The notes beneath the pieces are model-generated. The model was not told the DNA's origin, did not search any database, and saw nothing but the letters and a program-made list of their open reading frames with translations. This document shows positions 43,101 to 64,000 of a DNA stretch of 64,000 bases, in pieces (position 1 is the stretch's first letter; every line of letters begins with the position of its first letter). The DNA lies in NCBI GenBank assembly GCA_035291665.1, contig DATDRP010000003.1:212549-276548 (forward strand). The letters run 5' to 3'. This DNA is from Patescibacteria group bacterium (GTDB lineage Bacteria; Patescibacteriota; Microgenomatia; UBA8517). A program made the position numbers and the translations under genes.

Positions 43101-43101
43101 G

Positions 43102-47974: not shown

Positions 47975-47983
47975 CATATAAAA

Positions 47984-48146: not shown

Positions 48147-48239
48147 GTCGAACTTGGTTTCGCCGAGTCAAAGCGAAAGCAAGGTTGACGCAGGTAGTCG
48201 AGTTTGACTCGACACCTTCTTTTTGTATATATTTTGTTC

Positions 48240-48559: not shown

Positions 48560-50425
48560 TTAATTTAGTCCAAACTCCCACAGCTTTTCGGGGGTCATTA
48601 CCAAAACCTTATCATCGACAACCAAGATAGCATTTGCATCGGAAAATACATCGCTTTCGTAATATTTTTGATAATTCCCCTCTTTGTCAAATACGACAAT
48701 TCTTTTTAGGTTGGGTACAAGAATATATAACTCATTTAGATTTTCGTCCGTATATATGCTTTTCCCATCAGCTATTTCAAACGGTACACCTTTAGGTGTA
48801 AAAGATATATCATTTCCCAGGCTGAAACGTCGTATTTTACCGCTACCTTTCAAAACCCAAATACTTCCGTCAAATGCCCATGAGACCGAGTCGCCAATAT
48901 CAGAACTTTCAGCCGTAAGCCACGCCGATCCGGACGAAAAACCCGACTCCGTACCTGCATATTTCGTAATTGATCCTTTACTTTTACTTAAGAAGTACAA
49001 GTTTGAAGCAAAGGAATACAATAACCCGTCGTCAAAATCCGCATCAACCACCCTTTTTAAGGACCCTCCGCTCTCCGAATATATACCATCATTTTTTAGT
49101 AAATATACATTTCCGAGGCTTGAAGATATTCTTTTTGAACCCTCAACAGCATCTGACCCCAAGAAACTTAACGATTTCTTACTCTCAAAAACTATCGAAA
49201 CCACTTTTTTCGATTCAGACGACAAAACATAAATTGTTCCGTCAGATATGGTTATATCGCTTCCCTTGAACCCATCCGACAGGAGTGTTAAGTCCAAATA
49301 AAGCTGGGGATTAACCATATACTCCCCCAAAACCTTACCCTGAGAATTTTTAATATTCGCAGATAATTCTGTCAGTTTTGAGTCGTCAATTCCCCGGGAG
49401 GTGAGAGATTCTGTGATACTTCTTGACTCAATAAACATGTCCCTTGCCCTATTCGGATCAAGCGCTATCAACTTCTGCGATTCATCATATAAAGAAACTG
49501 CTTTAATAAGATCTGATTCATACGAGCTTTTATATTCTGAGTCCTGCTTTTTCTTAAGACCAAAGACAACGCTTACTCCCAATAAAGTAAGAAGAATCAA
49601 ACCAAGAAAAAGCGTACTTTTCTTTCTACTCCCACCGGCGACATCTTCCTCAAAACGGGATTTTACAATTATTCTTTTTACGGGGATAAGGCCTTTTAGT
49701 CTTTCCAAAAAATTAATTTTCGGATATTCCGGTTGAGTGGCTTCTTCATCAACAACCTCTTGAGATGCGTCCTGGGTATCAAGCTCTTCAAGTGTTTTTT
49801 GAAGTTTGCCGGTAAATTCTATTACCAAAACACCTTTCTTCCCCGAACTTCCGTCATTTGAAACCATGGGGGCAAGAACTTCAAGGGCGTCTTTTAGACC
49901 ATACCCCAGCGCGTTTTTCAATTCGGAATTTTTTATCCCTGACATGAAGCCGTTTGTTGAGAGAATCAGGAAATCTTTGTCTTTTGCGTAGCCGTTTGCA
50001 GAAATCACTTTTTCGCCAAAACTGTCAAGAATTCTGACCAGATAGTTATCCCTCAGAAGGATAACTTTTGTACCGTTAGTGCAAACGGCATAAATATTAT
50101 TTCCGACTACAGAAACGGCGGCGATTTCAAAATGGAGCAGGAATTTTTCAAATTCATCATAAATTTTGACAACCGCATCCCGTAAAGCGTTAAGGGGTTC
50201 TTTATCAATATTTCCAAAATATTCCTCCTGCAGCCTCTGAAGACATTCTCTTCCCAACTTGGCGCTTTCTATATCAATATTGTCCTTGCTGGCGCTGAAA
50301 AGAACATGAATTTTTCCCCTTTTAATCTGCTTTTCAGGAGTGGCAGGGAAAAAATCATACGCCTGTGTCCATCCGGAACCGTCGGGGTTACCGGTAAGCT
50401 TTACGCAGTTTGTTCCCAAATCCAT
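48560..50425 (-). CDS. membrane protein with N-terminal cytoplasmic degenerate PP2C-like domain and large extracytoplasmic beta-rich domain
   Basis: AAVSVVGNNIYAVCTNGTKVILLRDN resembles PPM motif 3-4 without the GDSR metal ligand. Single TM near residue 265. Confidence 0.4.
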   Translation of the reverse strand: MDLGTNCVKLTGNPDGSGWTQAYDFFPATPEKQIKRGKIHVLFSASKDNIDIESAKLGRECLQRLQEEYFGNIDKEPLNALRDAVVKIYDEFEKFLLHFEIAAVSVVGNNIYAVCTNGTKVILLRDNYLVRILDSFGEKVISANGYAKDKDFLILSTNGFMSGIKNSELKNALGYGLKDALEVLAPMVSNDGSSGKKGVLVIEFTGKLQKTLEELDTQDASQEVVDEEATQPEYPKINFLERLKGLIPVKRIIVKSRFEEDVAGGSRKKSTLFLGLILLTLLGVSVVFGLKKKQDSEYKSSYESDLIKAVSLYDESQKLIALDPNRARDMFIESRSITESLTSRGIDDSKLTELSANIKNSQGKVLGEYMVNPQLYLDLTLLSDGFKGSDITISDGTIYVLSSESKKVVSIVFESKKSLSFLGSDAVEGSKRISSSLGNVYLLKNDGIYSESGGSLKRVVDADFDDGLLYSFASNLYFLSKSKGSITKYAGTESGFSSGSAWLTAESSDIGDSVSWAFDGSIWVLKGSGKIRRFSLGNDISFTPKGVPFEIADGKSIYTDENLNELYILVPNLKRIVVFDKEGNYQKYYESDVFSDANAILVVDDKVLVMTPEKLWEFGLN

Positions 50426-50503
50426 TTTTTAATATTTTAAAACGAAAAAAGTTTATCAGTTAAATATTCGGTAACTTCAAATGCTAAAACCTTTAACGGT
50501 GTT

Positions 50504-50728
50504 TCACATTATTATCGAATAAATAAAAACCAAAATTGCTGTAAACAAATGAAGGGCAGCAGCAATTCTTAATGGTTTCTCAAAATTCACTTCAAGAGTT
50601 TGAGTCATAATATTAACCTGCTTCAAAACCACAAATGCAAAAACAACATACAAAGCCATACCAACAATAGCTGCAATTTTCAGGATAATAAATCCTGTTG
50701 ATTCAAGCTGCGGTATTTCAAAGGGCAT
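50504..50728 (-). CDS. small two-TM membrane protein
   Basis: 74 aa. Start overlaps the upstream gene stop. Confidence 0.3.
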   Translation of the reverse strand: MPFEIPQLESTGFIILKIAAIVGMALYVVFAFVVLKQVNIMTQTLEVNFEKPLRIAAALHLFTAILVFIYSIIM

Positions 50729-51501
50729 TATCTTACCCTCCCTTCCAATTTTTCTACTTCTTCCTCAATACGAAGCTCTCTCAGAACTTTAGCAACTTTG
50801 TCCGGAAACGGAACCGCTTCGAATTCTATCTCTGGAACTTCTGAAGCAGTCTGGACTAGAACATCGCCATAATTAAACATCGTCCTTATTCCTCCGCCAA
50901 GCTGGACTGTAACGTCCTGGATTTGGTCAATATTAGCATCTGTCATTTTTCTGTAAATTAAATTGTAAAAATCTACATCAAAAATCCGCTCATCAGTAAT
51001 TATATTTACGGAAAAAAACCAATCTAAAAATTTTTCAAACATATAAGCAAAGACTAATAAATACCATGCCATAACAGCGAAAACCTGATAACTCGCAGGG
51101 ATACTTTCAAAAGGCGGAAGGATAGTAAAGAACGACGGAGCTATTATCAAAAAGAATGATGCTATTACCCATTTAATATTTGTTATTGCATGTCTTCGTA
51201 ATATTAAAACTATTCTTTCCTGGGGATCTTTGTTAACAAAATCAGCACGCGTCGGAAAATAAATATACGACGCCAATGGATTTGAAGTGTATCCGGGCAG
51301 TTTCTCGGCAGCTTCTTTTGTAAGCGGATATTCCAAAGCGCCTGCTTTTTCGGCAACTTTATTTTTCTTGATGCCATCAAGTATTTCCGGAAGTTTCTTT
51401 TCCGATACCAAGTTGCTCTTTACTTTAGCTTCTGCATTCTCAATGCTTCCGGGCTCCGGATTTTTCGCGATGGTATCTTTTGATATAAATAAATCGGGCA
51501 T
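50728..51501 (-). CDS. membrane protein with bPH_2 (DUF304, YdbT-like) domain
   Basis: Two TM helices. C-terminal DERIFDVDFYNLIYRKMTDANIDQIQDV...GDVLVQT pattern. Confidence 0.5.
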   Translation of the reverse strand: MPDLFISKDTIAKNPEPGSIENAEAKVKSNLVSEKKLPEILDGIKKNKVAEKAGALEYPLTKEAAEKLPGYTSNPLASYIYFPTRADFVNKDPQERIVLILRRHAITNIKWVIASFFLIIAPSFFTILPPFESIPASYQVFAVMAWYLLVFAYMFEKFLDWFFSVNIITDERIFDVDFYNLIYRKMTDANIDQIQDVTVQLGGGIRTMFNYGDVLVQTASEVPEIEFEAVPFPDKVAKVLRELRIEEEVEKLEGRVR

Positions 51502-51664: not shown

Positions 51665-53458
51665 TTACAGTTTCTCTAAATTATAAAGCGAGCTTTTTAA
51701 CCCGACATAACCGGGCGCCCGAAGATTGAAAGCTTTTTTAAATTCATCTCCGGGAATATTAATGCTTCCTTTGTTTGTCGAAAATATTACAGTTTGAGTT
51801 GATCCTGAATTGGAATAAACAACACTTATAGATGAAGCACTAGTAAATCCGCCGATCCCGGCAAGATCACTCAAGGAGTAGGGATTACCACCCCAGCAGC
51901 TGGTATCAACCGGACTTATCCTTGAAACATCTCCCCCGCCTTTATTTAAGACACTCCAGGCGTTTATTATGTCTGCAGTTTGTTCACTCGTCAGCCACGG
52001 GTTTACCTTACCGCAAGTCGCGCCTGAACGGGATTTGTACCAGCCTTTGTAAAACCAAGGGGATCCGGAAATTTTTTCATAGGCTGAATTTGGCCAATTA
52101 CCGTCTTTGGCATCTTTTATCCCTGTCCATCCCCATTGGGATATGGTAAATCCTCCCGCAGTAGATGCGTAATAAGTCTTTGCCGGAGTTCCCCCGACAG
52201 TCAAAACCCAACCTCGGGTATCGCGTACTGCCTGTGCCCATTTACCCGATTTTAGCTGTGGCTTATACACCTGACAGCTTTCGGTTGTACAAATACTTCC
52301 GGCTCCGTTATTGGTGTACGAAAGTGCGTAAGTCCTGGCGGCAACCGCCTGCGCTTTGAGAGCTTCGTACCCGCCATTATCCCCCCACTTTTCGGGGACC
52401 TCATAAATTCCAAGGAGGTAATTTTCCTCAAAAGAAACCCTTCCGATGCCGGTCACTCCGATGGTTGCCGGAACGGGATAATTTTTATTAAGTGTTGCAC
52501 CCTGAAAATAATCCGATAAAATTTGTTCTGCCGATTGACCTGATTTTGATCTTCCGTACGCGCCGTATTGGCTCATGCCTGTTCTATGGGGCGCACCAAA
52601 TGAAAACGCAGCAAACGCCGGGCGGTATCCGGGGTCGCAAAAATTTGCAGAGCCGGGCGGACCGGAACAGGGTTCAAGCGTTTCAGGAGTATCTCCGACC
52701 GAGGTTTGGAAGCCTCCCTCCTTTTGGGCAATCAGGGCTTGCTGTTTGGAAGACAGAGTAGCCAAATAGCTTTCTGTTTTTTCAACCTCCACTGATAGGA
52801 ATGCTGCTCTTTCTGAAACGTTTTTCTTAACAGATGCAAGCAATGTCTGGTTTTTTTCCAGACTTTCCTTATCGCTTTTCAGTTTTACCAGATCTGCCGC
52901 ATATTTCTCCATCGTTTTTATGTCCTCACCCGTTGCTTTTTTACGAAGATTAATTTCTCTGAAGGCGTTGCTGGCATTGGCGGCAGTAATAAAAGCCTGA
53001 AATTCATCGTAAAAGCGGATAAAAATATAGTGATTTTTTGTTTTTTCTTCGAATATTCTTTGCGCGTACGCAAGATCGCCTTCCCGCTCTTTAATGTTTT
53101 GTTCTGTAACTTTCAACTGCGCTGAAAGAGCTGCAATCTTTTTTTCTAAAGAAGATATCTGGATTCTTAAATCAGCCAACTCTTGTTTGTTATATTCGTG
53201 GGCGGGTTTAAGAGCGTCGATCTCTTTCTGAAGTTTGTCCAAACAAAAATCAATATCACCTATACTTGGAGCATCGCAGTTCGGTTCGGCAGTCACATAC
53301 CGAAGCTTTGCTCCCAGAAGGAAAAAGGGGGAGATAATAATTAAGAAGGTTACCAGCAAAAATAATTTACTCCCAAGTGGAGGTTGGGGCTTTCCGGAAA
53401 TCATAGTAAAATAATATTTATCCATGAAATACTTCATTAAAATTATATCAGGAGTCAT
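51665..53458 (-). CDS. SpoIID/LytB-domain protein with N-terminal signal anchor and coiled coil
   Basis: GMSQYGAYG motif plus Trp/Gly-rich C-terminal half. The start may be the internal Met near 53404, as it overlaps the divergent gene. Confidence 0.55.
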   Translation of the reverse strand: MTPDIILMKYFMDKYYFTMISGKPQPPLGSKLFLLVTFLIIISPFFLLGAKLRYVTAEPNCDAPSIGDIDFCLDKLQKEIDALKPAHEYNKQELADLRIQISSLEKKIAALSAQLKVTEQNIKEREGDLAYAQRIFEEKTKNHYIFIRFYDEFQAFITAANASNAFREINLRKKATGEDIKTMEKYAADLVKLKSDKESLEKNQTLLASVKKNVSERAAFLSVEVEKTESYLATLSSKQQALIAQKEGGFQTSVGDTPETLEPCSGPPGSANFCDPGYRPAFAAFSFGAPHRTGMSQYGAYGRSKSGQSAEQILSDYFQGATLNKNYPVPATIGVTGIGRVSFEENYLLGIYEVPEKWGDNGGYEALKAQAVAARTYALSYTNNGAGSICTTESCQVYKPQLKSGKWAQAVRDTRGWVLTVGGTPAKTYYASTAGGFTISQWGWTGIKDAKDGNWPNSAYEKISGSPWFYKGWYKSRSGATCGKVNPWLTSEQTADIINAWSVLNKGGGDVSRISPVDTSCWGGNPYSLSDLAGIGGFTSASSISVVYSNSGSTQTVIFSTNKGSINIPGDEFKKAFNLRAPGYVGLKSSLYNLEKL

Positions 53459-55100
53459 AAAGACAAAGCTATTTAAAATTTTACTTCCTATCTTTATAAG
53501 CGGATTTTATATTTTCCTGAACCCGAAGATTCTTGATGCACAAACCAGCTTTTCCTACACATCGTTTACCCACAGGTCTCAGTTGAATACCGATCAAATA
53601 AACGCCTGTGTTACAAATGACCATGCCTATTTTACTGCACAGGGAATTTCCAGCGGGAGGTATATTTACGTACTTTTCCGACAAACCGGAGGAGATTATT
53701 ATCCAATCCTTCCTGATTTTACTATTAACACTAACGGTTCCGATTATACTTGGGACCAAAGATTTGATTTTATAACCGCAGGTTTTCCTCAGGGGTTATG
53801 CGCAACGGCTTCTGCATACGATGTCCCGACCGGCACCTACCAAGTACGGCTATATGACTATACAAGCTGGTTCAATTTCATAAATAGCGGCACTCCGACA
53901 ACCAATTATGGCGTAAGCAGTTCCTACGGTGGAATCTTGTACATTTCAACTCCCACCCTCCCAACCGCAGTACCGACAGCGGGTCCGACCGCCACACCGC
54001 CTCCATCATGTTCTTTGGCATATTGCTCCCAAGACACAGCAAGATGTACAGAGTCAATATGTGTAGGGTGTCCTTTTTGCGGATGTCCTGATAATCTGTT
54101 ATCGTCCAATGAAGAAAAATTTGCTTTCTGTTCGAGTGCATCAGTGGTTCCCCCAAGCGGACCGGGAAATACCAGTTTCACCTTTGAAGGAAGAAATTGT
54201 GTAAATATCGGAAGCGCTTCATATTACCGGATGAGTATCTATGATGGTAACGGTTTAATAAACTCTTCAACCCCCCAGATTTATGCCGTTGATGCCGATT
54301 CTGACGGGCAAATGGATGATGTTCGGGCTTCAATAGCTCTTGCAACTTTTCAGAATCCGGGAACTTTCTATGCAAAATTGTTTGCTCCCTACACAGACAT
54401 TTCCGGAAATCCGTTTGTTGGTGCCCAGTGTGCTCCTTTCGGGGTAACCAGCCCTGTTGCGTCCTCCACCTGCTGTAACATTGATCCTTCATCTAATCCT
54501 GCAGCCTTTTGCGGTCCTCCTTTGGGATGTACCAATGTCGGATCAAACGATCCCAGTCTTTGTCCCGCATCCTGTCCGCCGGAACGTTTTTACTGCACAA
54601 GCGAAGTCTGGGTTTGTATGAATCGTAACGCCTGTAGCGGATTTTTTACAGGTAATGCGGGAACATGTCGTTTTGCAAGATGTCCGGAAAATATGGTTTT
54701 TGATGGGTTTAACCCTCCGACGAATAACGATTGTCCGGTATTGTTTGCCTGCTGTACTGATCCGCAACCTGCAATAACAAGAGCGCTTCTTAATACCGGC
54801 TGTACGACAACAGACGGTCAGCAAGGTATAAATACGGCTGTTGGTTGTATCGCAACCACAACTAATATTCAATTCTTAACTTTTGTACTTCCTTGGGCAT
54901 TGGGTGTTGCAGGCGGAACTTCATTCATTTTATTTATTGTATCAGCAGTTATGTTTTCAACGTCCGCGGGAGATCCCCAAAGAATTAAATCCGCAAAACA
55001 ACTCTTCTGGTCAGCGTTAACCGGACTTATAATGATCATTTTTTCCGTTTATTTACTTAATTTGATAGGTCTTCAGATTCTCCGACTCCCGGGAATATAA
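53424..55100 (+). CDS. large Cys-rich secreted protein with C-terminal TrbC/VirB2-type (T4SS) pilin domain
   Basis: Signal peptide, about 40 Cys, YQVRLY module. C-terminus ...FVLPWALGVAGGTSFILFIV-SAGDPQRIKSAK-...TM2 is homologous to the small pilins downstream. Confidence 0.6.
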   Translation: MKYFIKIISGVIKTKLFKILLPIFISGFYIFLNPKILDAQTSFSYTSFTHRSQLNTDQINACVTNDHAYFTAQGISSGRYIYVLFRQTGGDYYPILPDFTINTNGSDYTWDQRFDFITAGFPQGLCATASAYDVPTGTYQVRLYDYTSWFNFINSGTPTTNYGVSSSYGGILYISTPTLPTAVPTAGPTATPPPSCSLAYCSQDTARCTESICVGCPFCGCPDNLLSSNEEKFAFCSSASVVPPSGPGNTSFTFEGRNCVNIGSASYYRMSIYDGNGLINSSTPQIYAVDADSDGQMDDVRASIALATFQNPGTFYAKLFAPYTDISGNPFVGAQCAPFGVTSPVASSTCCNIDPSSNPAAFCGPPLGCTNVGSNDPSLCPASCPPERFYCTSEVWVCMNRNACSGFFTGNAGTCRFARCPENMVFDGFNPPTNNDCPVLFACCTDPQPAITRALLNTGCTTTDGQQGINTAVGCIATTTNIQFLTFVLPWALGVAGGTSFILFIVSAVMFSTSAGDPQRIKSAKQLFWSALTGLIMIIFSVYLLNLIGLQILRLPGI

Positions 55101-55148
55101 TTGGCCTGAAATATTCTTGGATGCTGATATAAGATATAATAAATTGAC

Positions 55149-56588
55149 ATGAAAGCGATTGTAAAAAATCTTCTATTTTTAGCTTTGACAATATTTTTTT
55201 TTATCGCTTCGGATGAACTTACAATTGCGCAGGAATACGGGACTTACAGTTGTACCTATATTCCGACAAGTCCTTCCTGTTCCGGCAACCCAGCCAGTTG
55301 TACAACCTATGGCTGCCGATTCCCAACGGATGACAGTACGGCTGGTTGCGGCCAATTTAACGGCGATGCCGTGCAGTGTTCTTCATCCACTTTCGCCTGC
55401 GACTTCTGTCCGATTATGACTCATTCCCCGATGCAAATAAGTGATTGTTCCCAGGGAGTAAGGTTTCAGGCATTGCTTCTTAATGACACCATGTCCTATA
55501 CCATTAGGCTTTACAATCTTGGCAACGGCCGTTTATACGATGTACCCCAAGCGTCAATTGTGTCTCAATCTTCATATGACCAAACTTTATATTTTGATGT
55601 AACCGATATTAATGACGAAAACCTTGTGCTTTGTAATAATTCTCAAACCAGTGCAAGAATCCCGTCGGGTTTCTACCAAGTTAGGTTGTATACACAGGGG
55701 ACTTCTTATTACCGCGTCAGTAATGCCGGAAGTCTTTACTTTGTCCAACCTGTAATCACACCCCAACCCGGGACCTGTTCCTGTAACCAAAACGGTACAG
55801 CGTGTACGGTAAATTCAAGCCCCACCTGCAACTCAGGCTACTTACCCTCCTGCTTCTATGGGGGAACATTTTGCGGATGTAATTGTGTTACCCCCACTCC
55901 GGGGGGATCAGGGCTTCCCTGTCCTGTAACAACGCCCGGCATCCAATGCTGCGCTTCTTCATCCGCCTGTTCCTCTCCCGCCGGTACGGTGTTAACTCAG
56001 TATTCATGTGCGACCGGTGTCTGCTGCCAGGGTGCATGTACGGCAGTTGCTCCGACTGTCGCCATTCCTCCCGAATTCGCCGCATGCGATACGACCTGTT
56101 CAGCAAATCCGGAACCATACACGATAGGAAATTGTTCCCGAACCGGAGGTAATCCGGACACTTCAAAATGCCAGCGTCCGGTTTCAAATCCGGGATATGA
56201 CTGTAATATCAACGGGGTAACCTATGACTGCTTTTGCTGTTCGGAGCTTCTTTCGTCATCTACTGCAGCACTCACCCCAAGACCATCTCTTCCTGCCACT
56301 TGTGCTAACAACGGAATAGATACTGCAATCGGATGTTTGCCTGTGGGGAACCGCCAGCTATTCTTGCAATTTATTCTTCGCTGGGCACTGGGAATCTCGG
56401 GTGGAACTGCTCTTGTCATGATTGCCTATTCCGGAATTTTAATCATGACAGCACAGGGCGATAAGCAAAGACTTCAAACCGGCAAGGAATTTTTGACAGC
56501 ATCGGTGGCAGGCATAATGATGATTATTTTTTCGGCGTATTTATTGCAGCTTATCGGTGTAACCATATTCCGGCTGCCAGGAATATAA
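55149..56588 (+). CDS. large Cys-rich secreted protein with C-terminal TrbC/VirB2-type pilin domain (paralog)
   Basis: Same architecture. C-terminal 85 aa nearly collinear with the previous gene (…ILRWALGISGGTALVMIAYSGILIMTAQGDKQR…RLPGI). Confidence 0.6.
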   Translation: MKAIVKNLLFLALTIFFFIASDELTIAQEYGTYSCTYIPTSPSCSGNPASCTTYGCRFPTDDSTAGCGQFNGDAVQCSSSTFACDFCPIMTHSPMQISDCSQGVRFQALLLNDTMSYTIRLYNLGNGRLYDVPQASIVSQSSYDQTLYFDVTDINDENLVLCNNSQTSARIPSGFYQVRLYTQGTSYYRVSNAGSLYFVQPVITPQPGTCSCNQNGTACTVNSSPTCNSGYLPSCFYGGTFCGCNCVTPTPGGSGLPCPVTTPGIQCCASSSACSSPAGTVLTQYSCATGVCCQGACTAVAPTVAIPPEFAACDTTCSANPEPYTIGNCSRTGGNPDTSKCQRPVSNPGYDCNINGVTYDCFCCSELLSSSTAALTPRPSLPATCANNGIDTAIGCLPVGNRQLFLQFILRWALGISGGTALVMIAYSGILIMTAQGDKQRLQTGKEFLTASVAGIMMIIFSAYLLQLIGVTIFRLPGI

Positions 56589-56632
56589 GTAAGCCGTTTA
56601 TATCCTGCCATAAAAAATATAGAATAATAACA

Positions 56633-57211
56633 ATGAAGAAAAGTCTATTTACACTCTTACTCATCGCCTTCGTGGGTTACTTCATGATCCTTAAACCTGA
56701 TATTGCCAGCGCTCAGGGGTACGGTACCTGCACCTGGAACGGTCCGGAATTCGGCGGCTACTGTCAAGTGGGCTCGGTAAATTGCGATCCTAACTGTTTC
56801 GCACCGGCAAGTGCATGCGTCGGAATCCAGTTCAGTTCCTGTCCCGGCGCAACATTCGTCTGCGGCAACTGCTTTGTCCCACCAACAAGCGCACCGCCGC
56901 CTCCCAGCAACCTGGACTTTAATAGCTTGTATAGCGCAATTGGTTTTCGATTCGGCGGTTCAACGGTTGGCAACATTATCAGTGTTGCCAACACATATCT
57001 CTTTCCGATTGCTGGCTTAATACTTCTTTTATATCTGATATACGGAGGGTTAAATTTAATGCTGTCTGGCGGAGATCCGAAAAAAGCGGCTGCAGCAAAA
57101 TCAATTATCTCAACTGCAATTATGGGAATAATTATTATCTTTGCAGCTTACTGGATTGTTCAGTTGGTTGGAAGAATACTTGGTCTTACACAAATTTCAC
57201 TTACTTTTTAA
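56633..57211 (+). CDS. Cys-containing TrbC/VirB2-type pilin-like protein
   Basis: Signal peptide, 12 Cys in a short N-domain, then TM1-GGLNLMLSGGDPKKAAAAKS-TM2. Confidence 0.6.
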   Translation: MKKSLFTLLLIAFVGYFMILKPDIASAQGYGTCTWNGPEFGGYCQVGSVNCDPNCFAPASACVGIQFSSCPGATFVCGNCFVPPTSAPPPPSNLDFNSLYSAIGFRFGGSTVGNIISVANTYLFPIAGLILLLYLIYGGLNLMLSGGDPKKAAAAKSIISTAIMGIIIIFAAYWIVQLVGRILGLTQISLTF

Positions 57212-57214
57212 ATT

Positions 57215-57541
57215 ATGAATAAACTTGCACTTGTTGATATCGGAAGCGTTTTTGGAAGCCCGTTCGGAAGAGACAGGGGTTTTGCCGATTTTGTGTCGGT
57301 TGTTCTTTTTAATGTTATTGCATTGGCATCCGTACTTTTATTGATATTAATAATTTACGGTTCAATTACAATCATAGCCGGAGCCGGGAGCGGCAATAAA
57401 GAAGATGTTGGTAAAGGAAGGAAAGCTGTCACTTCAGCGCTCGTCGGCTTTTTGATTATTTTCGTTTCTTATTGGATAATATATTTATTGCAAAGAATTT
57501 TGGGTTTTAATATATTGCAGCCTTTTCAACCGCTACCATGA
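57215..57541 (+). CDS. TrbC/VirB2-type (T4SS) pilin-like protein
   Basis: TM1-loop(AGAGSGNKEDVGKGRKA)-TM2. 4-nt gap from the previous gene. Confidence 0.6.
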   Translation: MNKLALVDIGSVFGSPFGRDRGFADFVSVVLFNVIALASVLLLILIIYGSITIIAGAGSGNKEDVGKGRKAVTSALVGFLIIFVSYWIIYLLQRILGFNILQPFQPLP

Positions 57542-57894
57542 ATAACCTGCTCGCTCAGTTCGGAAGAGTTAACCCCCCGCCGGGAGTAAGCTCTTGGATT
57601 GCAAATGCCGGTGGAAATTCGGAAACGGGGTTGCAGCGTTTTGTTTCAGCAATTATCCAAACATTAATTGCCGGCGCCGGAATATACGCTCTTATCAATC
57701 TGGTAATGGCCGGATATTCTTTTATGTCTGCCGGCGGTAATCCGGAAAAAATTGCACAATCCTGGGGAAAAATCTGGCAGACACTCCTTGGACTTCTGGT
57801 TGCTGCAGGGGCGTTTGTTCTTGCCGGAGTATTCGGCCAGATTATATTCGGTAATCCCCGCGCGCTAATACAAATACAAATTTTTACACCGTAA
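57538..57894 (+). CDS. TrbC/VirB2-type pilin-like protein
   Basis: TM1-SAGGNPEKIAQSW-TM2. Overlaps the previous stop. Confidence 0.6.
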   Translation: MNNLLAQFGRVNPPPGVSSWIANAGGNSETGLQRFVSAIIQTLIAGAGIYALINLVMAGYSFMSAGGNPEKIAQSWGKIWQTLLGLLVAAGAFVLAGVFGQIIFGNPRALIQIQIFTP

Positions 57895-58260
57895 ATGAAA
57901 AACATACTTGCTCAAAATCCGCGAAATATTGGAGGAGAGATAAACGGTCTGGGTTCATACGGAACACCGGGGAACTCATCACCCGGACTGTTTGCAACCA
58001 TTCTCTCCCGAATAATCGGGCTTTTAACGATCGTTGCCGGAATATTTTTTATTTTTCTTCTTATTTCGGGGGGCATCGCCTGGATGTCGGCAGGAGGAGA
58101 TAAGGGAAAACTGGCGAGTGCCAGAACCAGCATGGTTAACGGAGCCGTTGGACTTGCTGTTGTTGTTGCCGGAATCTTTATCGTCCAAATCATTGGAAAC
58201 ATTATCGGAGTCGGAAATTTTCTTGATCCGGTTAACTTAATACAAAGGATAACCCCCTAA
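57895..58260 (+). CDS. TrbC/VirB2-type pilin-like protein
   Basis: TM1-GGIAWMSAGGDKGKLASAR-TM2. Confidence 0.6.
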   Translation: MKNILAQNPRNIGGEINGLGSYGTPGNSSPGLFATILSRIIGLLTIVAGIFFIFLLISGGIAWMSAGGDKGKLASARTSMVNGAVGLAVVVAGIFIVQIIGNIIGVGNFLDPVNLIQRITP

Positions 58261-58303
58261 CCCCACCCCTTGACAAGAATTTTGCATGGCCGGATAATAT
58301 TAA

Positions 58304-58642
58304 TTGGATATGAGAAATTTATTGGCTCAAGGTTATGTGGTTAATTTGGATCCTCCCAACCAATTTCAAAATCTTGAAAATATTGATTTTGGATCACTCG
58401 TAACCATCGCGATTGCGTTTGTCATGATCGTTGCCGCCATTGCATTCTTCTTTATCCTGATCTTGGGTGGAATCAAATGGATCACCTCCGGTGGGGATAA
58501 AGGTAGAACTGAAGCTGCCCGCAGTCAGATTACAGCTGCACTTATTGGTCTTGTAATCGTATTTGCTTCCTGGGCAATCCTAAATATTGTGGAAAACTTC
58601 TTCCAGGTTAATTTGAGAAGCTTTAATCTCAACCTGTTTTAA
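58304..58642 (+). CDS. TrbC/VirB2-type pilin-like protein
   Basis: TM1-GGIKWITSGGDKGRTEAARSQ-TM2. Confidence 0.65.
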   Translation: MDMRNLLAQGYVVNLDPPNQFQNLENIDFGSLVTIAIAFVMIVAAIAFFFILILGGIKWITSGGDKGRTEAARSQITAALIGLVIVFASWAILNIVENFFQVNLRSFNLNLF

Positions 58643-58714
58643 ATCTTAAAAAGCATAAATTACTTTGAGATTTTTAGAACTTATTTCTAAAAACCGAAAG
58701 GGGGTGGAAAAAAG

Positions 58715-59041
58715 ATGAATCTATTAGCACAAGACACAGTCGTACTTAATGCTCCGGCAGGTTTTGAAAACCTTGAAAACATTTCGTTCGGAGGATTAGT
58801 GGGACTTGCTATTTCGTTCGTTCTGATTATTGCCGCAATCGCTTTCTTCTTTATGTTGGTCCTAGGTGGAATCAAGTGGATTACCTCAGGAGGAGACAAG
58901 GGAAAGACAGAAGCAGCCAGAAACCAGATTACAGCCGGATTGGTTGGTTTGGTTATCGTCTTTGCTGCGTGGGCAATATTGACTCTAATTGAAAGCTTCT
59001 TTGGTGTAAGTTTGAGGACATTTACAATTCCTGGAACTTAA
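58715..59041 (+). CDS. TrbC/VirB2-type pilin-like protein (close paralog of 58304)
   Basis: TM1-GGIKWITSGGDKGKTEAARNQ-TM2. Confidence 0.65.
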   Translation: MNLLAQDTVVLNAPAGFENLENISFGGLVGLAISFVLIIAAIAFFFMLVLGGIKWITSGGDKGKTEAARNQITAGLVGLVIVFAAWAILTLIESFFGVSLRTFTIPGT

Positions 59042-59067
59042 AGAAACATGCAAGGAAGAATCAATTA

Positions 59068-59097
59068 AAAAGCGGTCTTTTGTAAGGCCGCTTTTTA
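59068..59097 (+). terminator. rho-independent terminator
   Basis: AAGCGGTC-ttttgtaa-GGCCGCTT followed by TTTTTATT. Confidence 0.55.
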
Positions 59098-59198
59098 TTG
59101 TCTTGAGCATTGATAAACAAATCTTCTTAAACTAGAATTTATATGGTAGTAAAAAGAGATAAGGGCAAAGTTAAAAGTATTTAAAAAAAGGAAAATTT

Positions 59199-59528
59199 AT
59201 GAAACTCGCACAACTTATTAATCCAGTTCCCGGTGTCCATACCACAGATAATGGAATTGCAACAATAAAGGGTTTTGAATGGATTTTTAACAACATTGTC
59301 TTTTCCATCATCGCATTTGCCGGGATCGCTCTTTTTGTCATGCTTCTTGTGGGAGGATTTAAGTATCTGACGTCCGCAGGAAACCCTGAAAGCGTAGCTG
59401 CAGCTCAAAAAACTTTAACTTATGCACTAATCGGAATGGTCCTTGTTGCATTATCGTTTTTGATATTATTTCTTATTCAGACCTTTACGGGTGCGAATGT
59501 CACCGTATTCAACGTGACGGTTCCTTGA
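59199..59528 (+). CDS. TrbC/VirB2-type pilin-like protein
   Basis: TM1-GGFKYLTSAGNPESVAAAQK-TM2. Confidence 0.6.
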   Translation: MKLAQLINPVPGVHTTDNGIATIKGFEWIFNNIVFSIIAFAGIALFVMLLVGGFKYLTSAGNPESVAAAQKTLTYALIGMVLVALSFLILFLIQTFTGANVTVFNVTVP

Positions 59529-59613
59529 GGAAATTTGTCATGATGCCACTTTATCCCCCGAGTCTAACTCGATAGACACCTTGAACATATGATAAAATTT
59601 GTAAACAATACAT

Positions 59614-62600
59614 ATGACAAAAAAATTGTTCGCAATTGTCTTTTCATTCTTATTTTTAGCAAAGAGCTATTCAATAATTTCGGCGCAAACTCCAACAACT
59701 CTTGATTGTACAAACGGATTCCAAACGCTTTTCCCCGATCAAACAAGCGCAATAACCTACAAAGAAGTGACCCTCACTTCCCCCAGAAGAATGGTTGTCC
59801 ATATTGTCAAAGCCAACATCAATAGCGGGGATCTTGATTTTACAACAACGCCGCGAAAATATTTGGGATCAACTACTTCGACTTTTTTAACCGGCGTCGA
59901 CGCAGCGGTTGCCATAAACGGAAGCGGTTTTTTTGAGTCCGACCCGGAAGATCCGACCGGATTTAATTCATATCAGGGAGACCGATACTCATCCGATTCG
60001 GGATTGGGAATTTTGGGTTTTTTCATCTCCGAAGACAACGTTCCATCATTCACCTATTCAATCCCATCACCCTTGTGGGATGCATTAAGCGGCGTCAACC
60101 TTCTTGTGAGCAACAATAATATTTATGATCGATTAATAAGCTGCCCCCTTCAAAGCTGCACCCCTTCCGGCTGTGACACATCATACTGCACAGTTGCTCC
60201 CAGAACCGCACTTGGATTAAACGATGATAATATAATAATTATCGTCGTAGACGGCCGGTTGCCGGGTTACAGTGAAGGAGCAAGACTTGATGAGCTGGCG
60301 ACGATAATGCGAAGGTGTGAAGCGACAAATGCCGTAAACATGGATGGCGGAGGTTCTTCAACACTAGCCGCATCGGGCTTAAATTATACAGGTAATCAGA
60401 TTTTAAACCGCCCGAGCGACGGAACGGAAAGAACCGTTTCGAACCATTTCGGAATCTGTATTGGATCGTGTTCTGATATCAGCAGCAACCCGATTCTTAT
60501 ACTTCCTGAAGGGGAAGCCAGACCAAGATATCAGGCTGGTGCGGAGTATCCATTCCCATGTAACAGAAGCGCCCCTGATAATAGCATTCCTTTCTCCGAT
60601 GATGAATTTCATTCCTTAAGACCCTATCAGGCAAGTCCCTGCAATCCAAATAAGGAAGATCTTGCGCTTTTTTGCGGAAATGACTTGTTTGTCGGAGACA
60701 ATGTCACAATCATAAAAACCAATTATGAACCCCCCACTATTCCTGCTTACTCTGTAAACGGATCCCCCGCTTCACCCAATGTACCTTCCGATCCTTACAG
60801 CAATGCATGCTTTATCTGCGGAGATAGCGGCTATTGTCAAAGAACGCTGAATGTATATTGCGACAGCTCAGCCGATCAGTGCGACCCCAATATAACAAAC
60901 TCCTGCAGCCGGTGCATTAATAACGGCGACGGAACGGAAAGCTGCTCATTTGTTATTTCTTCATCAAAGCAAATAGCGGTGGATCTCTTTGGAGCGGAAC
61001 TGCCGATTATGGGTTACACCGAGCCCTCAGTGGGAAACACTAATGGACCGAAAGTGATAAACAGCCAAAACAAAACCGACGAAACCATGGATCACGCAAC
61101 AAAGATGAATGAATATGTCAGCTGGTACTTGAACGGTGTTATCGGAAGAGCCGAATATGATTTTCCCGACCCTACCCCCGACTGCGTCGGGGAATCATCA
61201 GACAAACCCGGCTGGTGTGAACCGTTGGTCCTCGGAAGTAATTACTGTATGACAAAAAGTTCAGTTCCTCTGGTTGGAGCAACCCCCAACTTCGATCATA
61301 TTGCCGATGGAAAGGATACCTGTTCTTCGGGAGAATATTGCTGCGTCAGCCAGTCAACTTCTGACAGTGGCAAAATTCCTGACCGGGAAATAACCAGTAA
61401 TTATTCCGGTCCGGTAAAAAAACTTCTTCCTTTTACTATCCAAAACATAGAAAGGATCGCTGAGATCAATGACGGTTTTGCTTCAAAAAATCTTGATACT
61501 CGTATCCGACATGATCAGTACGTAGGCTGCCACTTCGGTGGAATGTTTAATGTCAAAATTCCCTTTACAAGTACGTATGTTGATTTTTCGATTCTGGCAA
61601 TTCCAACACAATGTTACGGAGGCGGTTTTGTGGATTATATCAGAGACGAACTGCACCTGAGTGAATTCGCACCAAACAATCTTCCACCCGTTGAAGAAGA
61701 TTACCAGGGAAGGCCGTTTATTGAATTCCAAAAGGATTACAGGGAGTGGAAGGGCGACTGGTGTTATCCTTTGACGATCAATATTCCGATATTCGGTACT
61801 TTTCAATTCCTTTTGTGCTTTAACAATCCATTCAGTCCGGATATCTTTTCAAACCTTTTCAGCTTTACTCCGTTCACGTCAACCGAAGACCGACTGGGGG
61901 ATGTCAGGGTCAGGTCGGTTGGAATAGTTCCGATCGGATCCAACCTGCGGTTGATTTCCTACAGACTCAGGAACGTTAAAAATGCGGACCTCTTCTTTGC
62001 CCACATGGAAGAAGACACTCAGCTTTCTGCAAATCTTCAGGATACATTCATTTATAAAGACGCCGATCGCGATGATATCGGTTCGTCCTCATTTGTACCC
62101 TATGAACCATATTGCAGCTATCGCCGGGTCATTACTAATCCCGGAGACGATCTTTTTGCCGGAGAAATCTCAGCCGATGTTGACTATACGGTTGCTCTGA
62201 CCTGTCCCTTTTTTATCTGGGGAGATGGACAGAATGCTGATTACGGCAACCTTTGCCGGAACCTGAATAATGCGGAGTGTGTAAGAGCAATTCCCGCGGA
62301 TGCCACTTGGTGTGATGTAAGTTATGGGCAATTCGACTGCATCGGAGGACAAATTTGCGGTGTGAATTGCCAATCGGTGGTTGGAGTAGACGAATCAAAT
62401 TGCGAGTCCGCAGCAGCACTGGATTTTCCCAGTTTACCGTATGTTAATTCGGAGAACCCGGGTTGTGTACCGGAAAGCTTTGATGGTATATGCGAGGAGG
62501 TCAGCGATTATCCCAGTAGATCTCCTTATAGTATTCCCTACCCATACTGCAGAAGCGGATTTAAGTGTGTTTTCAATAAAAATACCTGTACGAGAAGCGA

Positions 62601-63546
62601 CCAGCAACCAACGACTACTCAAGCCTGTTATGGGCAAACACTGGTTGGCATAAGACTTCAGACCCGTACCCCTCTTGCGGATAAAGTCTGGGCAAGACTC
62701 GTTGCAGGATCAACCAGCGTTTTCAGGAAAATGTTTCCCAAAGTCGGAGAAGAAGGTGCCCCCATTGAAGGCATAGAAGATATCCCAACAGCAACAAACG
62801 TTACATATCAAAATCTTTCCGGAGGTCTTTTGTTTGCCGGTAACCCAGGAGATCAAAGACCGGGAAGCGCTGCCCAGCTTTACTTCCCCCATATCGGAGC
62901 TCTCCGGGAATATTTTCTCGGCGGGATCCAAACAATGCTGCGTCCTTATGAATACAAAGACACATTGATAAGCTCAACCTTGGAAGGAAGAACTCCAACT
63001 TATGTTTCCTCTGACTGCGGAGGCATTTCCGACGATCAGGTACCAGAACAATATTTGGGGGCGCTTAAGGAAGAATTCATCGCCTACTGTAATAAATTCG
63101 CCGGGGGAAACTTGGGTGAAGCCTGCTATAACGATATGGTCGTCAAATCCATAGCAGCCAATGTCAATCCGGCTTTCACCATGTCTATTTGGATAAACGA
63201 GTCTGCCTGCAGCAACTATACCTTCGGGGATATCGTCAATGATTTCGGAACGATGCTTGCACCAAGTAAAAATTACGAAGAGCAGCTTGATGCTTTCCTT
63301 GATAAAAGTACTGTTTACTGGACACACACTTCAAACTGCTACCAAAATTCATGGTTTTTGAGTTACATGCACGCATTTTTGTCATTCTTCAAAGCAGGAG
63401 ACACGGACGGAGACTGCCGGCCGAATAGTACCGCCGATGCGGAAAGATATTACAATGCAATAAAAGGAGTTTGGTATTCACTTATAGATATGGTAGACCC
63501 TACCTGTTATTTGCCGGATAATCCTGCGGATATGAGTTGTCCGTAG
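59614..63546 (+). CDS. 1310-aa Cys-rich secreted protein with N-terminal phosphodiester glycosidase (NAGPA/DUF2233-like) domain
   Basis: Signal peptide. AVAINGSGFF and NAVNMDGGGSSTL motifs characteristic of the phosphodiester glycosidase family. More than 60 Cys in the remainder. Confidence 0.6.
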   Translation: MTKKLFAIVFSFLFLAKSYSIISAQTPTTLDCTNGFQTLFPDQTSAITYKEVTLTSPRRMVVHIVKANINSGDLDFTTTPRKYLGSTTSTFLTGVDAAVAINGSGFFESDPEDPTGFNSYQGDRYSSDSGLGILGFFISEDNVPSFTYSIPSPLWDALSGVNLLVSNNNIYDRLISCPLQSCTPSGCDTSYCTVAPRTALGLNDDNIIIIVVDGRLPGYSEGARLDELATIMRRCEATNAVNMDGGGSSTLAASGLNYTGNQILNRPSDGTERTVSNHFGICIGSCSDISSNPILILPEGEARPRYQAGAEYPFPCNRSAPDNSIPFSDDEFHSLRPYQASPCNPNKEDLALFCGNDLFVGDNVTIIKTNYEPPTIPAYSVNGSPASPNVPSDPYSNACFICGDSGYCQRTLNVYCDSSADQCDPNITNSCSRCINNGDGTESCSFVISSSKQIAVDLFGAELPIMGYTEPSVGNTNGPKVINSQNKTDETMDHATKMNEYVSWYLNGVIGRAEYDFPDPTPDCVGESSDKPGWCEPLVLGSNYCMTKSSVPLVGATPNFDHIADGKDTCSSGEYCCVSQSTSDSGKIPDREITSNYSGPVKKLLPFTIQNIERIAEINDGFASKNLDTRIRHDQYVGCHFGGMFNVKIPFTSTYVDFSILAIPTQCYGGGFVDYIRDELHLSEFAPNNLPPVEEDYQGRPFIEFQKDYREWKGDWCYPLTINIPIFGTFQFLLCFNNPFSPDIFSNLFSFTPFTSTEDRLGDVRVRSVGIVPIGSNLRLISYRLRNVKNADLFFAHMEEDTQLSANLQDTFIYKDADRDDIGSSSFVPYEPYCSYRRVITNPGDDLFAGEISADVDYTVALTCPFFIWGDGQNADYGNLCRNLNNAECVRAIPADATWCDVSYGQFDCIGGQICGVNCQSVVGVDESNCESAAALDFPSLPYVNSENPGCVPESFDGICEEVSDYPSRSPYSIPYPYCRSGFKCVFNKNTCTRSDQQPTTTQACYGQTLVGIRLQTRTPLADKVWARLVAGSTSVFRKMFPKVGEEGAPIEGIEDIPTATNVTYQNLSGGLLFAGNPGDQRPGSAAQLYFPHIGALREYFLGGIQTMLRPYEYKDTLISSTLEGRTPTYVSSDCGGISDDQVPEQYLGALKEEFIAYCNKFAGGNLGEACYNDMVVKSIAANVNPAFTMSIWINESACSNYTFGDIVNDFGTMLAPSKNYEEQLDAFLDKSTVYWTHTSNCYQNSWFLSYMHAFLSFFKAGDTDGDCRPNSTADAERYYNAIKGVWYSLIDMVDPTCYLPDNPADMSCP

Positions 63547-63611: not shown

Positions 63612-64000
63612 ATGATGTTAAGAAAAATAATTGCTTCATTATTATTAATTGTATTCTTGCTGACCCAAACTCTGTCATACGCCTCCGCCCAGGAAACTTA
63701 TCCCTGGTATTCGCAAAGCTATAAACAATGGTTTGTAAAAGTTTATGATCAGGACGTGTCTCCTCCGCAGGAAATCTTCGGTGAAAGGTATACTGCCGCC
63801 CAGGTTTCGTGGGTAATTTATTCGCTTATCGCTTTTGTTCAGCAGGGTGTATACAGGCTGATGGCGTGTATTTGGCAAGGGGGGGCTGGTCAAATCGGAT
63901 CCTGCTTATATCAAAATCTTCCTTTTCCGCCTGTAAGCGAGAATCTTGAAACTCCACAAAAAAGCGTTCTGGCAACACTATTCCCCGAAGAAAGACAGCT
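63612..64000 (+). CDS. secreted hypothetical protein (3' partial, runs off window)
   Basis: ATG at 63612 followed by a signal peptide (IIASLLLIVFLLTQTLSYASAQ). No stop before the window end. Confidence 0.35.
   Translation, partial: MMLRKIIASLLLIVFLLTQTLSYASAQETYPWYSQSYKQWFVKVYDQDVSPPQEIFGERYTAAQVSWVIYSLIAFVQQGVYRLMACIWQGGAGQIGSCLYQNLPFPPVSENLETPQKSVLATLFPEERQ

Follow-up and report, generated by a model that had tools for sequence, protein, structure and literature searches.

Gene content of the locus

Positions 51,665–63,546 of a 64,000-nucleotide (nt) window, the whole stretch of DNA that was analysed (from contig DATDRP010000003.1 of a Patescibacteria group bacterium), carry a locus for a cell-surface apparatus. 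It consists of a SpoIID/LytB-domain protein, two large proteins of 558 and 479 amino acids (aa) that end in a pilin-like module, seven smaller pilins and a secreted giant protein of 1310 aa. All open reading frames (ORFs) of the initial annotation, which was made from the sequence of the window, were confirmed at the coordinates given there; its count of ten genes became 11 (Table 1). Its view that these genes work together as a single surface-appendage locus, in an episymbiont with a small genome, was supported, the bacterium being a member of the Patescibacteria. With a probability of about 0.7 for the reading as a whole, the region represents the envelope and surface half of a type IV secretion system (T4SS) that a Woesebacteria-like bacterium of the Microgenomatia (Patescibacteria, candidate phyla radiation) encodes on its chromosome close to the origin, and this T4SS is of the monoderm, MPF-FATA-derived type with arrays of VirB2-like pilins.

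Table 1 Features of the locus and its immediate flanks (positions refer to the window; TM, transmembrane; Cys, cysteine; HMM, hidden Markov model; AF2, AlphaFold2)
Feature	Position	Strand	Basis
SpoIID/LytB-domain protein, 597 aa as longest ORF	51665..53458	-	PF08486, TIGR02669
Position-1 pilin copy A, 558 aa: signal peptide ending A-Q, 28-Cys ectodomain, C-terminal pilin module	53424..55100	+	
Pilin module (TM1-loop-TM2) of the 558-aa protein, residues 481-552	54864..55079	+	Small-pilin HMM, PF18895 E=0.0047
Position-1 pilin copy B, 479 aa: signal peptide ending A-Q, 36-Cys ectodomain, C-terminal pilin module	55149..56588	+	
Pilin module of the 479-aa protein	56352..56573	+	AF2 hairpin, HMM, PF18895 E=3e-5
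Position-2 pilin, 192 aa: signal peptide, ~85-aa 8-Cys ectodomain, pilin module	56633..57211	+	PF18895 37.7 bits
Position-3 pilin, 108 aa	57215..57541	+	PF18895 match, alignment, orthology
Position-4 pilin, 118 aa	57538..57894	+	PF18895 match, alignment, orthology
Position-5 pilin, 121 aa	57895..58260	+	PF18895 match, alignment, orthology
Sigma-70-like promoter, near-consensus TTGACA-17-GATAAT, 11/12 matches, directly 5' of the 112-aa pilin	58270..58298	+	
Position-6 pilin, 112 aa, candidate major pilin	58304..58642	+	PF18895 34.9 bits
Position-7 pilin, 108 aa, close paralog of position 6, candidate major pilin	58715..59041	+	PF18895 36.5 bits
Strong terminator-like hairpin, 14-bp stem, 3' of the position-7 pilin	59066..59097	+	
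Position-8 pilin, 109 aa	59199..59528	+	PF18895 35.9 bits, positional orthology
Secreted giant, 1310 aa, 52 Cys: signal peptide, NAGPA domain, beta-rich core, C-terminal lysozyme-fold domain (predicted)	59614..63546	+	
NAGPA/DUF2233 phosphodiester-glycosidase domain of the giant, residues 97-281	59902..60456	+	PF09992
Conserved core of the giant, residues ~300-1140, beta-rich, very long strands, no known fold match	60511..63033	+	
C-terminal helical domain of the giant, predicted lysozyme superfamily, residues ~1150-1295, candidate catalytic E1196 and D1210	63061..63498	+	
5' part of the 584-aa polytopic membrane protein, VirB6 candidate, runs off the window	63612..64000	+	
Three conserved neighbours downstream of SpoIID: 257-aa TM, 74-aa two-TM DUF5657 and 621-aa single-TM proteins	48560..51501	-	

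A pilin module shared by large and small proteins

Nine proteins that carry the pilin module are encoded in a single operon. The Pfam family T4SS_pilin (PF18895) matched all nine, and four of them (positions 2, 6, 7 and 8; Table 1) exceeded its gathering score of 26.6 bits; the two large proteins obtained 17.4 bits (558 aa) and 24.5 bits (479 aa). TrbC (PF04956), also suggested at the outset, gave E=0.16 for a single protein. An independent HMM was built from the seven small pilins only (192, 108, 118, 121, 112, 108 and 109 aa). This profile recovered the C-termini of both large proteins, at E=3.7e-10 for the 558-aa protein (residues 481–552) and E=1.6e-9 for the 479-aa protein (residues 405–475), as had been claimed. 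Among the 672 ORF segments of the window it matched nothing besides the pilin-module proteins, and the module common to large and small pilins is therefore not a chance resemblance. Alignment revealed a TM1-(S/T)(A/G)GGD(K/P)-basic loop-TM2 layout in all nine modules, with two TM segments in each by hydropathy and a conserved GGD(K/P)xK loop; both this alignment and the locus-derived HMM tie the five modules below the PF18895 gathering score to the other four. In the AF2 model of the 479-aa protein, a helix (residues 402–433), a loop and a second helix (residues 439–469) could be observed at a confidence (pLDDT) of 85–93.

A long N-terminal signal peptide, as in VirB2/TraA propilins, was present on the three extended pilins and on none of the six small ones. 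The small pilins truly lack it, since their stop-to-stop ORFs allow at most 9 additional codons; they start M-x-(x)-(L/I)-L-A-Q without a hydrophobic signal core (57215–59528). All Sec-type signal peptides of the locus end in A-Q (LDAQ, TIAQ, SAQ, ISAQ and ASAQ in the genes at 53424, 55149, 56633, 59614 and 63612). The Agrobacterium VirB2 propilin is cleaved at an Ala/Gln site, and by analogy the common Ala-Gln junction may be a shared processing site that leaves an N-terminal Gln. The position-3 pilin (57215–57541) also weakly matched the N-terminal part of the TrbL_3/VirB6-like family PF19590 (E=1.6e-4, profile positions 46–132 of 379) and the mycoplasma integrative and conjugative element (ICE) conjugal transfer family MMCAP2_0566, NF045848 (E=0.0035), which hints, at the sequence level, at a pilin-like hairpin inside some VirB6-like proteins.

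T4SS genes beyond the window edge

The same contig could be followed past the window by exact-protein look-up, which retrieved two copies, one 100% identical over 14,387 nt (L001) and the other different by one base. After the giant, the gene order was the 584-aa polytopic membrane protein, two opposite-strand proteins (769 and 924 aa), a 23S-rRNA intervening-sequence protein (IVP), a 377-aa PrgI-like protein, a 220-aa TraC/TrsD-like protein and a 676-aa VirB4. The last three are encoded 7.5–9.6 kb downstream of the giant, with the start of VirB4 9.6 kb past the stop codon of the giant. VirB4 carries DUF87, AAA_10 and P-loop_TraG domains, and a full-length ortholog in the metagenome locus L013 matched P-loop_TraG at E=1.3e-26. 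The 377-aa protein combines an N-terminal PrgI (VirB3-like) domain, PF12666, at E=8e-4 and below the gathering score, with a CarboxypepD_reg domain. For the 220-aa protein a faint precomputed match to the TraC-like PF26593 was available, with none in hmmscan. Both proteins were strongly conserved directly upstream of VirB4 in all relatives.

The last pilin lies 8 coding sequences (CDS) upstream of VirB4 and the first lies 16, and thus the whole array is virB4-associated under the published criterion of 20 CDS on either side. The initial statement that no VirB4, VirB6 or VirD4 gene lies within reach is correct inside the 64-kb window but does not extend to the contig, because the window ends 454 nt after the stop codon of the giant. 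The further inference, that the pilins are decoupled from a T4SS and belong to an undescribed architecture, does not stand in view of this edge and of the recent literature. VirB2-like arrays of 2–11 genes near dnaA, abundant in Microgenomatia, have been described (PMC12102498), as has an essential array within a T4SS cluster (PMC10633639). No relaxase, VirD4-type coupling protein (T4CP) or integrase was detected in the scanned ORFs of the window or in the adjoining 10 kb.

The 584-aa protein (full ORF at L002:13999–15753) has a signal peptide and ~6 hydrophobic segments, and in relatives it keeps its place between the giant and the VirB3/VirB4 genes. By position and topology it is a candidate VirB6.

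Between the genes for the polytopic protein and PrgI, every relative has an opposite-strand insertion that codes for one or two very large (600–1130 aa), Cys-free, acidic, cytoplasmic proteins (here L002:15758–20898, minus strand; equivalents in L004–L059). They fall into several mutually undetectable sequence groups and could be fast-evolving T4SS substrates or regulators. The 769- and 924-aa proteins were also considered as a coupling protein and rejected, as neither a Walker A motif nor any family larger than a single ortholog could be detected. The IVP, a four-helix-bundle protein of family PF05635, lies directly upstream of the PrgI-like gene (L002:21033–21401) and likewise in L005, L009, L010, L011, L021, L023, L041 and L064. 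In two relatives the VirB4 ORF is ~1239 aa long (L010:6613–10332 and L011:9884–13603) as opposed to the usual 625–676 aa, which suggests an inserted or fused domain, possibly an intein.

Conservation of the locus in relatives

A metagenome scan seeded with the VirB4 N-terminus yielded 23 related loci. Every locus of sufficient length contained the giant, the polytopic protein, a variable large opposite-strand protein, sometimes the IVP, and the PrgI-like, TrsD-like and VirB4 genes; the gene order from the pilin array to VirB4 was kept in ~10 metagenomic and many genomic relatives. One metagenome locus (L013) continues past VirB4 with a 602-aa M23-peptidase protein, a 353-aa protein, dnaN, dnaA, rnpA, yidD and yidC.

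Species-representative genomes were also searched, with the conserved module at the C-terminus of the fusion proteins as seed, and gave 45 loci, including two complete genomes. Most belong to Candidatus Woesebacteria, and Candidatus Shapirobacteria, Gottesmanbacteria, Collierbacteria and Chisholmbacteria are also represented. The recurring layout places the homologs of the 621-aa protein, DUF5657, the 257-aa protein and SpoIID on one strand, and 8–9 pilins, the giant and the polytopic protein on the other. A homolog of the giant follows the array in 26 of 39 loci. Next to the giant comes the polytopic protein, both in 17 of 24 genome loci and in every longer metagenome locus. SpoIID lies at most 4 ORFs from the pilin array in 39 of the 42 loci with upstream flank, including the otherwise rearranged L063 and L070. 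The closest relatives (L026, L027, L029 and L030) match the window gene for gene, including protein sizes. Synteny with related genomes is therefore strong, and the conditions under which the initial annotation would have been refuted do not apply: the locus is neither absent nor broken up in these genomes, and the C-terminus of the 479-aa protein was modelled as a helical hairpin.

Many third-party-annotation metagenome-assembled genomes with this Microgenomatia-type locus (L030, L031, L033, L037, L049, L054, L056–L058, L065 and L069) are titled 'uncultured Gammaproteobacteria bacterium'. Judged by gene content and synteny, these titles are almost certainly mislabels.

Ordered pilin types and candidate major pilins

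Local alignment of the last 115 residues revealed that each of the nine pilin modules of the window best matches its positional counterpart in L027. The 558-aa module behaves in the same way towards its positional ortholog in L027, L029 and L030. More distant Woesebacteria keep the order as eight types, which correspond to position 1, the 192-aa, first 108-aa (108a), 118-aa and 121-aa pilins, the two of the 112/108b pair and the 109-aa pilin. Paralogs within the array are ~20% identical in alignment. These comparisons show that the pilins are not recent duplicates, and younger paralogy looks restricted to the 112/108b pair (positions 6 and 7) and to the position-1 duplication of the sub-clade of the window. 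Positional orthology of this kind favours a heteromeric assembly of non-interchangeable subunits over antigenic variation. Recent tandem duplication and chance juxtaposition were considered as explanations and rejected.

The position-6 pilin is 73–81% identical to its orthologs, which places it among the most conserved genes of the locus, and the position-7 pilin reaches 78–91%. Since these two are the most conserved and are bracketed by promoter-like and terminator-like sites (Table 1), they are the candidates for the bulk subunit. The promoter at 58270–58298 is a consensus match only, and promoter-like sites in the region do not exceed shuffle expectation.

Fused pilins and their ectodomains

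The two large position-1 proteins had been credited with about 40 Cys each; 28 and 36 were counted. The 192-aa protein, listed among the small pilins, is itself a fusion of signal peptide, ectodomain and pilin module, and its position-2 orthologs in most Woesebacteria are only ~105–119 aa long. Homologs of the 479-aa protein (P0016–P0018) showed the same layout, with a signal peptide ending in A-Q, a variable Cys-rich ectodomain and a C-terminal module that ends R(I/L)PG(L/I). A profile search against 1.84 billion cluster representatives gave 9,638 matches of the position-1 family at E≤1e-3, 464 of them at E≤1e-30. Among the best 150, the module was at the extreme C-terminus in all, 86 were at least 250 aa and 26 at least 400 aa long, the median number of ectodomain Cys was 20, and 91% had a signal-peptide-like N-terminus.

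Position-1 pilins differ in the length of their N-terminal extension, which grades continuously from ~20 to ~450 aa. In most Woesebacteria the position-1 pilin is only 124–232 aa long, and large extensions occur in 12 of the 45 genome loci. Compared with the orthologs in L029 and L030, the ectodomains were 27–41% identical (their lengths differ) and their pilin modules 54–57%, against 72–75% for SpoIID and 73–91% for the 112/108b pilins (positions 6 and 7). The initial idea of a tip adhesin fused onto a pilin is plausible as a hypothesis.

The longest ORFs of SpoIID (minus strand) and of the 558-aa pilin (plus strand) overlap head to head by 35 nt (53404–53458), and the divergent promoter region would be very short. 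These starts are provisional: in public gene calls both proteins begin further in (564 aa for SpoIID, 505 aa for the pilin), and the 505-aa version would drop the signal peptide.

The giant secreted protein

The NAGPA domain of the giant was confirmed (PF09992, E=1.1e-26, 94.5 bits against a cutoff of 25) and covers only 185 of the 1310 residues. It also matched PDB entries 6pky (NAGPA, E=5.7e-8) and 3ohg (E ~6e-8). The domain is an accessory limited to the sub-clade of the window, and most of the 280 homologs of the giant (670–1420 aa) lack it. The remaining part, residues 300–1310, could be modelled from a 69-sequence alignment with a mean pLDDT of 84.3 and a predicted TM-score (pTM) of 0.72. 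The model has a beta-rich core, in which the strands are very long, and ends in a helical domain.

A Foldseek search of this model against the PDB returned nothing significant, the top weak matches being g-type lysozymes, Tse3 and MltE. The fold comparison list (values in brackets) contained the C. difficile endolysin glucosaminidase (10.6), MltF (9.0), Slt (8.4), LytB (8.4), g-type lysozyme (7.9), FlgJ (7.2), the Tn916-like CTn1-Orf17 wall hydrolase (7.1), EtgA (6.8) and Tse3 (6.8). Residue E1196 is conserved in 48 of 65 sequences and D1210 in 54 of 60. Pfam SLT families did not match the C-terminus of the giant, and SLT_3 was found at the same C-terminal position in some members of its family. 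On the strength of the modelled fold, the C-terminus is predicted to be a domain of the lysozyme superfamily resembling peptidoglycan glycosidases.

The SpoIID protein and upstream neighbours

The SpoIID/LytB assignment of the gene divergent from the pilin operon was confirmed (PF08486, E=1.5e-15). The protein consists of an N-terminal TM segment, a coiled coil (~65–240) and the SpoIID domain. It scored 110 bits against TIGR02669 (cutoff 83.3) and 57.6 bits against TIGR02870 (cutoff 234.75), and is not the sporulation equivalog. A SpoIID structure in the PDB, 5i1t, was matched at E=4e-8, and in the alignment 'VPE' of this protein stands opposite the C. difficile 'GEM' motif with its Glu. The motif 'G-x-H-x-x-GMSQ-x-GA-x-G' stands directly N-terminal of the main SpoIID domain in this protein (residues ~288–322; 52500–52600, minus strand) and at the C-terminus of the crystallised SpoIID (5i1t residues 291–325), and this sequence arrangement suggests a circularly permuted or otherwise rearranged SpoIID/LytB domain.

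Downstream of SpoIID, a triad of the 621-aa single-TM protein, the 74-aa two-TM DUF5657 protein and the 257-aa TM protein with a weak bPH_2 match (48560–51501) lies beside SpoIID and the array in most of the 45 genome loci. Its link to the T4SS is unproven. DUF5657 (PF18901) belongs to the same Pfam accession block as T4SS_pilin (PF18895) and SLT_3 (PF18896). Further upstream of the locus lie a small ORF of GIY-YIG-like appearance (48204–48524), a tmRNA gene with a 26-residue tag (47577–47975) and a cluster of tRNA-Ser and tRNA-Arg genes (43100–44966).

Relationship to described secretion systems and pili

Gene content and position match the Patescibacteria T4SSs of the 2023–2025 literature, and the locus is accordingly a further case of this described kind rather than a free-standing new pilus. 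In those systems the VirB4 clade derives from monoderm MPF-FATA systems, and PrgI/VirB3, TrsD and VirB2-like pilins, the latter found with PF18895, are present (PMC12102498). The arrays of 2–11 VirB2-like genes, abundant in Microgenomatia, often lie beside dnaA/dnaN (Quinonero-Coronel et al. 2025, PMC12102498). According to the same survey, most Patescibacteria T4SS clusters have no relaxase, VirB6 is scarce in Microgenomatia, VirB1 is mostly missing and 'no adhesins detected' applies (PMC12102498). Southlakia epibionticum cannot grow as an epibiont without its T4SS genes (cluster SEML1_0006–0019), among them a series of pilins (Wang et al. 2023, PMC10633639; review PMC12857230).

The present locus shares with these systems VirB4, tandem divergent PF18895 pilins and a small-genome monoderm host. 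It also has PrgI/VirB3-like and TrsD-like candidates, a chromosomal location near dnaA/dnaN in the relatives examined here, and no relaxase or coupling protein found nearby. It differs as follows. The pilins published so far are small paralogs, whereas here and in relatives the first position bears a Sec-exported, Cys-rich ectodomain of up to ~450 aa; the pilins form an ordered set of eight orthologous types; and a giant with a predicted lysozyme-fold domain and an unrecognised polytopic protein stand between the array and VirB3/VirB4. As far as could be found, the ordered eight-type pilin set, the fused ectodomain pilins and the architecture of the giant are apparently unreported, and neither the supplements of the 2025 survey nor the wider literature mention SpoIID, NAGPA, SLT_3 or DUF5657 in a T4SS context.

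The Agrobacterium VirB and R388 Trw systems likewise have a two-helix pilin with a short basic loop, a proposed VirB4-dependent extraction, a wall-cutting glycosidase and a minor subunit proposed as nucleator or tip. In contrast, the system described here is monoderm, without a VirB7/9/10 outer-membrane core or a VirB5 homolog (the candidate tip being a pilin fusion), has eight pilin types instead of one and small pilins without signal peptide, and gave no sequence match to solved VirB2/TraA. The Gram-positive conjugative T4SSs of the MPF-FATA class (pCF10 Prg/Pcf, pIP501, Tn916) lack pilins, use LPXTG adhesins (PrgB, for example) and encode both a coupling protein and a relaxase; the present locus showed no such adhesin, coupling protein or relaxase. 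The mycoplasma ICE family Mbov_0395 (NF045849) resembles the locus in its ~80-residue two-TM pilin-like module and in serving a wall-less or monoderm T4SS, and six of the nine proteins matched it (E=9e-7 to 8e-3), although at 15.8–28.5 bits against a 40-bit cutoff; there it is a single gene of a mobile element, whereas here it is an ordered array. With the minor-pilin sets of type IV pili and type II secretion systems (T2SS) there is analogy without homology: both have an ordered, conserved operon of distinct subunits with one abundant major pilin, and a large adhesin associated with a priming complex. The type IV pilin fold is unrelated (a single N-terminal helix with a globular head), and those systems use other assembly ATPases and a prepilin peptidase.

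Proposed mechanism

In its most far-reaching form, which we regard as possible with the odds against it, the proposal is that the monoderm Microgenomatia assemble a heteromeric filament of VirB2 type. Its eight pilin types would have been fixed long ago and could not stand in for one another. Position 1 would be a modular tip adhesin, a hypervariable disulfide-rich ectodomain on a pilin module, that replaces VirB5 and the Gram-positive adhesins. Together with the giant wall-breaching enzyme (phosphodiester glycosidase, new beta-rich fold and lysozyme-like domain), the filament would serve the episymbiont as an organelle for host contact and feeding.

Under the preferred T4SS reading, the six small pilins, lacking signal peptides, would insert as N-out/C-out hairpins with the basic GGDK loop in the cytoplasm, a placement that follows from the positive-inside rule. 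A VirB4/VirB3/TrsD motor with the polytopic VirB6-like platform would extract the pilins and stack them into a wall-spanning filament or conduit, made mostly, it is probable, of positions 6 and 7, while the remaining types would have minor or structural roles. The position-2 pilin and both copies of the position-1 pilin would be exported by Sec and display their fast-evolving, disulfide-rich ectodomains on the outer face. In the F- and T-pilus structures both termini of VirB2-family pilins face outward, and an N-terminal ectodomain would for this reason lie on the filament surface. Not all subunits can carry a domain of 350–440 aa, and few fusion subunits are therefore expected. They would most likely be nucleating or tip subunits that recognise the host cell, and would fill the VirB5/adhesin role that Patescibacteria T4SSs lack. 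VirB5 itself has been proposed to start pilus assembly and to end at the tip (PMC12857230).

The giant (lysozyme-like and NAGPA domains), SpoIID, of a family that cleaves glycan strands, and the M23 peptidase encoded after VirB4 in relatives would act on the wall, on peptidoglycan as well as on polymers with phosphodiester links, and this cutting would let the apparatus pass its own wall, breach that of the host, or both. That NAGPA-type glycosidases release wall polymers linked through GlcNAc-1-phosphate is speculation based on the chemistry of the family.

Evaluation of the T4SS assignment and alternative explanations

Several observations weigh against the T4SS reading or parts of it. On the side of the pilins, five modules stay below the PF18895 gathering score (17.2–24.5 bits), a nine-module profile found no solved VirB2/TraA pilin among PDB sequences, and, although the C-terminus of the 479-aa protein was modelled as a hairpin in line with the VirB2-like structure expected at the outset, Foldseek of this fusion model against the PDB gave nothing at E≤1e-3, solved pilins included. 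The link from PF18895 to canonical VirB2/TraA is thus drawn from the Pfam family definition and from topology. Pfam revealed no known ectodomain domain, adhesin or lectin in 150 representatives of the position-1 family, the ectodomain of the 479-aa fusion was modelled at a pLDDT below 50 (12-sequence alignment), and the label 'adhesin' is an inference from Sec export, Cys richness and rapid divergence. For the polytopic protein, none of 27 members matched any Pfam family, a 27-sequence profile found nothing among PDB sequences, and two large opposite-strand genes and ~7.5 kb separate it from PrgI/VirB4. The contig was read only up to the start of VirB4, and the part with M23, dnaN and dnaA was seen in relatives and not on this contig. 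The adjacency of SpoIID was sampled almost exclusively within Microgenomatia, where general synteny is high. Finally, no filament has yet been seen for any Microgenomatia T4SS, and the function of Patescibacteria T4SSs is experimentally unknown (PMC11665869).

Two alternatives would place the genes outside a resident T4SS. A stand-alone pilus or adhesion apparatus, with VirB2-type pilins uncoupled from a T4SS motor or channel and assembled by another route, agrees with the failure to detect VirB4, VirD4, VirB6 or a relaxase inside the 64-kb window and with the giant, the polytopic protein and two opposite-strand genes that intervene between the array and VirB4. It is nevertheless very improbable, as VirB4 and the PrgI-like and TrsD-like genes follow on the same contig, the linkage is kept in every relative long enough to show it, and the array is virB4-associated by CDS distance. 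An ICE with a Gram-positive-type conjugation system and pilin-like proteins, as in mycoplasmas, draws on the sub-threshold pilin matches to the Mbov_0395 family NF045849 and on the reported derivation of the VirB4 clade from MPF-FATA conjugation systems. This is less credible still: dozens of species have the locus at one chromosomal site, flanked by housekeeping genes and by dnaN/dnaA, neither the window nor the 10 kb beyond yielded a relaxase, T4CP or integrase, and the composition shows no island-type break, though GC rises modestly to ~0.45 over the locus. An ICE or plasmid origin was rejected because the locus keeps its place on the chromosome and neither a relaxase nor a T4CP was among the genes found.

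The other two alternatives accept the T4SS and concern what the pilins do within it. In the antigenic or host-range variation suggested by the 2025 survey, the tandem pilins would be interchangeable alternative major subunits that evade recognition or match host strains. The ~20% identity among array paralogs, in line with the literature average of 25%, and the faster divergence of ectodomains than of pilin modules are compatible with this idea. Variation systems usually show lineage-specific expansion, gene conversion or shuffling, however, whereas the eight types are kept as positional orthologs whose order and approximate size agree between Woesebacteria species, with recent-looking paralogy only at positions 6/7 and in the position-1 duplication; interchangeable subunits are accordingly improbable. 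The most serious alternative, although still an unlikely one, is that no extended pilus is built. The pilins would then form a short membrane- or wall-embedded stalk or a channel lining, or the two-helix module would be a mere anchor for Cys-rich surface proteins near the T4SS. Monoderm T4SSs are normally without pili (PMC12102498; PMC12857230), an ectodomain of 350–440 aa may be hard to fit into tight helical packing, solved pilins gave no structural match, and the length of the position-1 extension varies continuously. An anchor, on the other hand, would hardly call for eight conserved types, two of them highly conserved and apparently separately expressed, and the fusions carry a module that is truly homologous to the small pilins and has the same loop motif.

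Implications for Patescibacteria T4SSs

The T4SS of Patescibacteria is essential for epibiotic growth in the one species tested and is unusual as a monoderm system with pilins. The locus described here adds no new kind of system, and it sharpens the open question of T4SS function in this group in three ways. The conserved eight-part pilin set points towards a heteromeric structure and away from antigenic variation. The variable Cys-rich ectodomains of the large position-1 pilin family are concrete candidates for the host-recognition element that surveys found missing. The giant, with its confident but unmatched beta-rich fold and its predicted lysozyme-like domain, is a candidate wall-breaching component, and the polytopic 584-aa protein is a candidate for the 'missing' VirB6 of the Microgenomatia.

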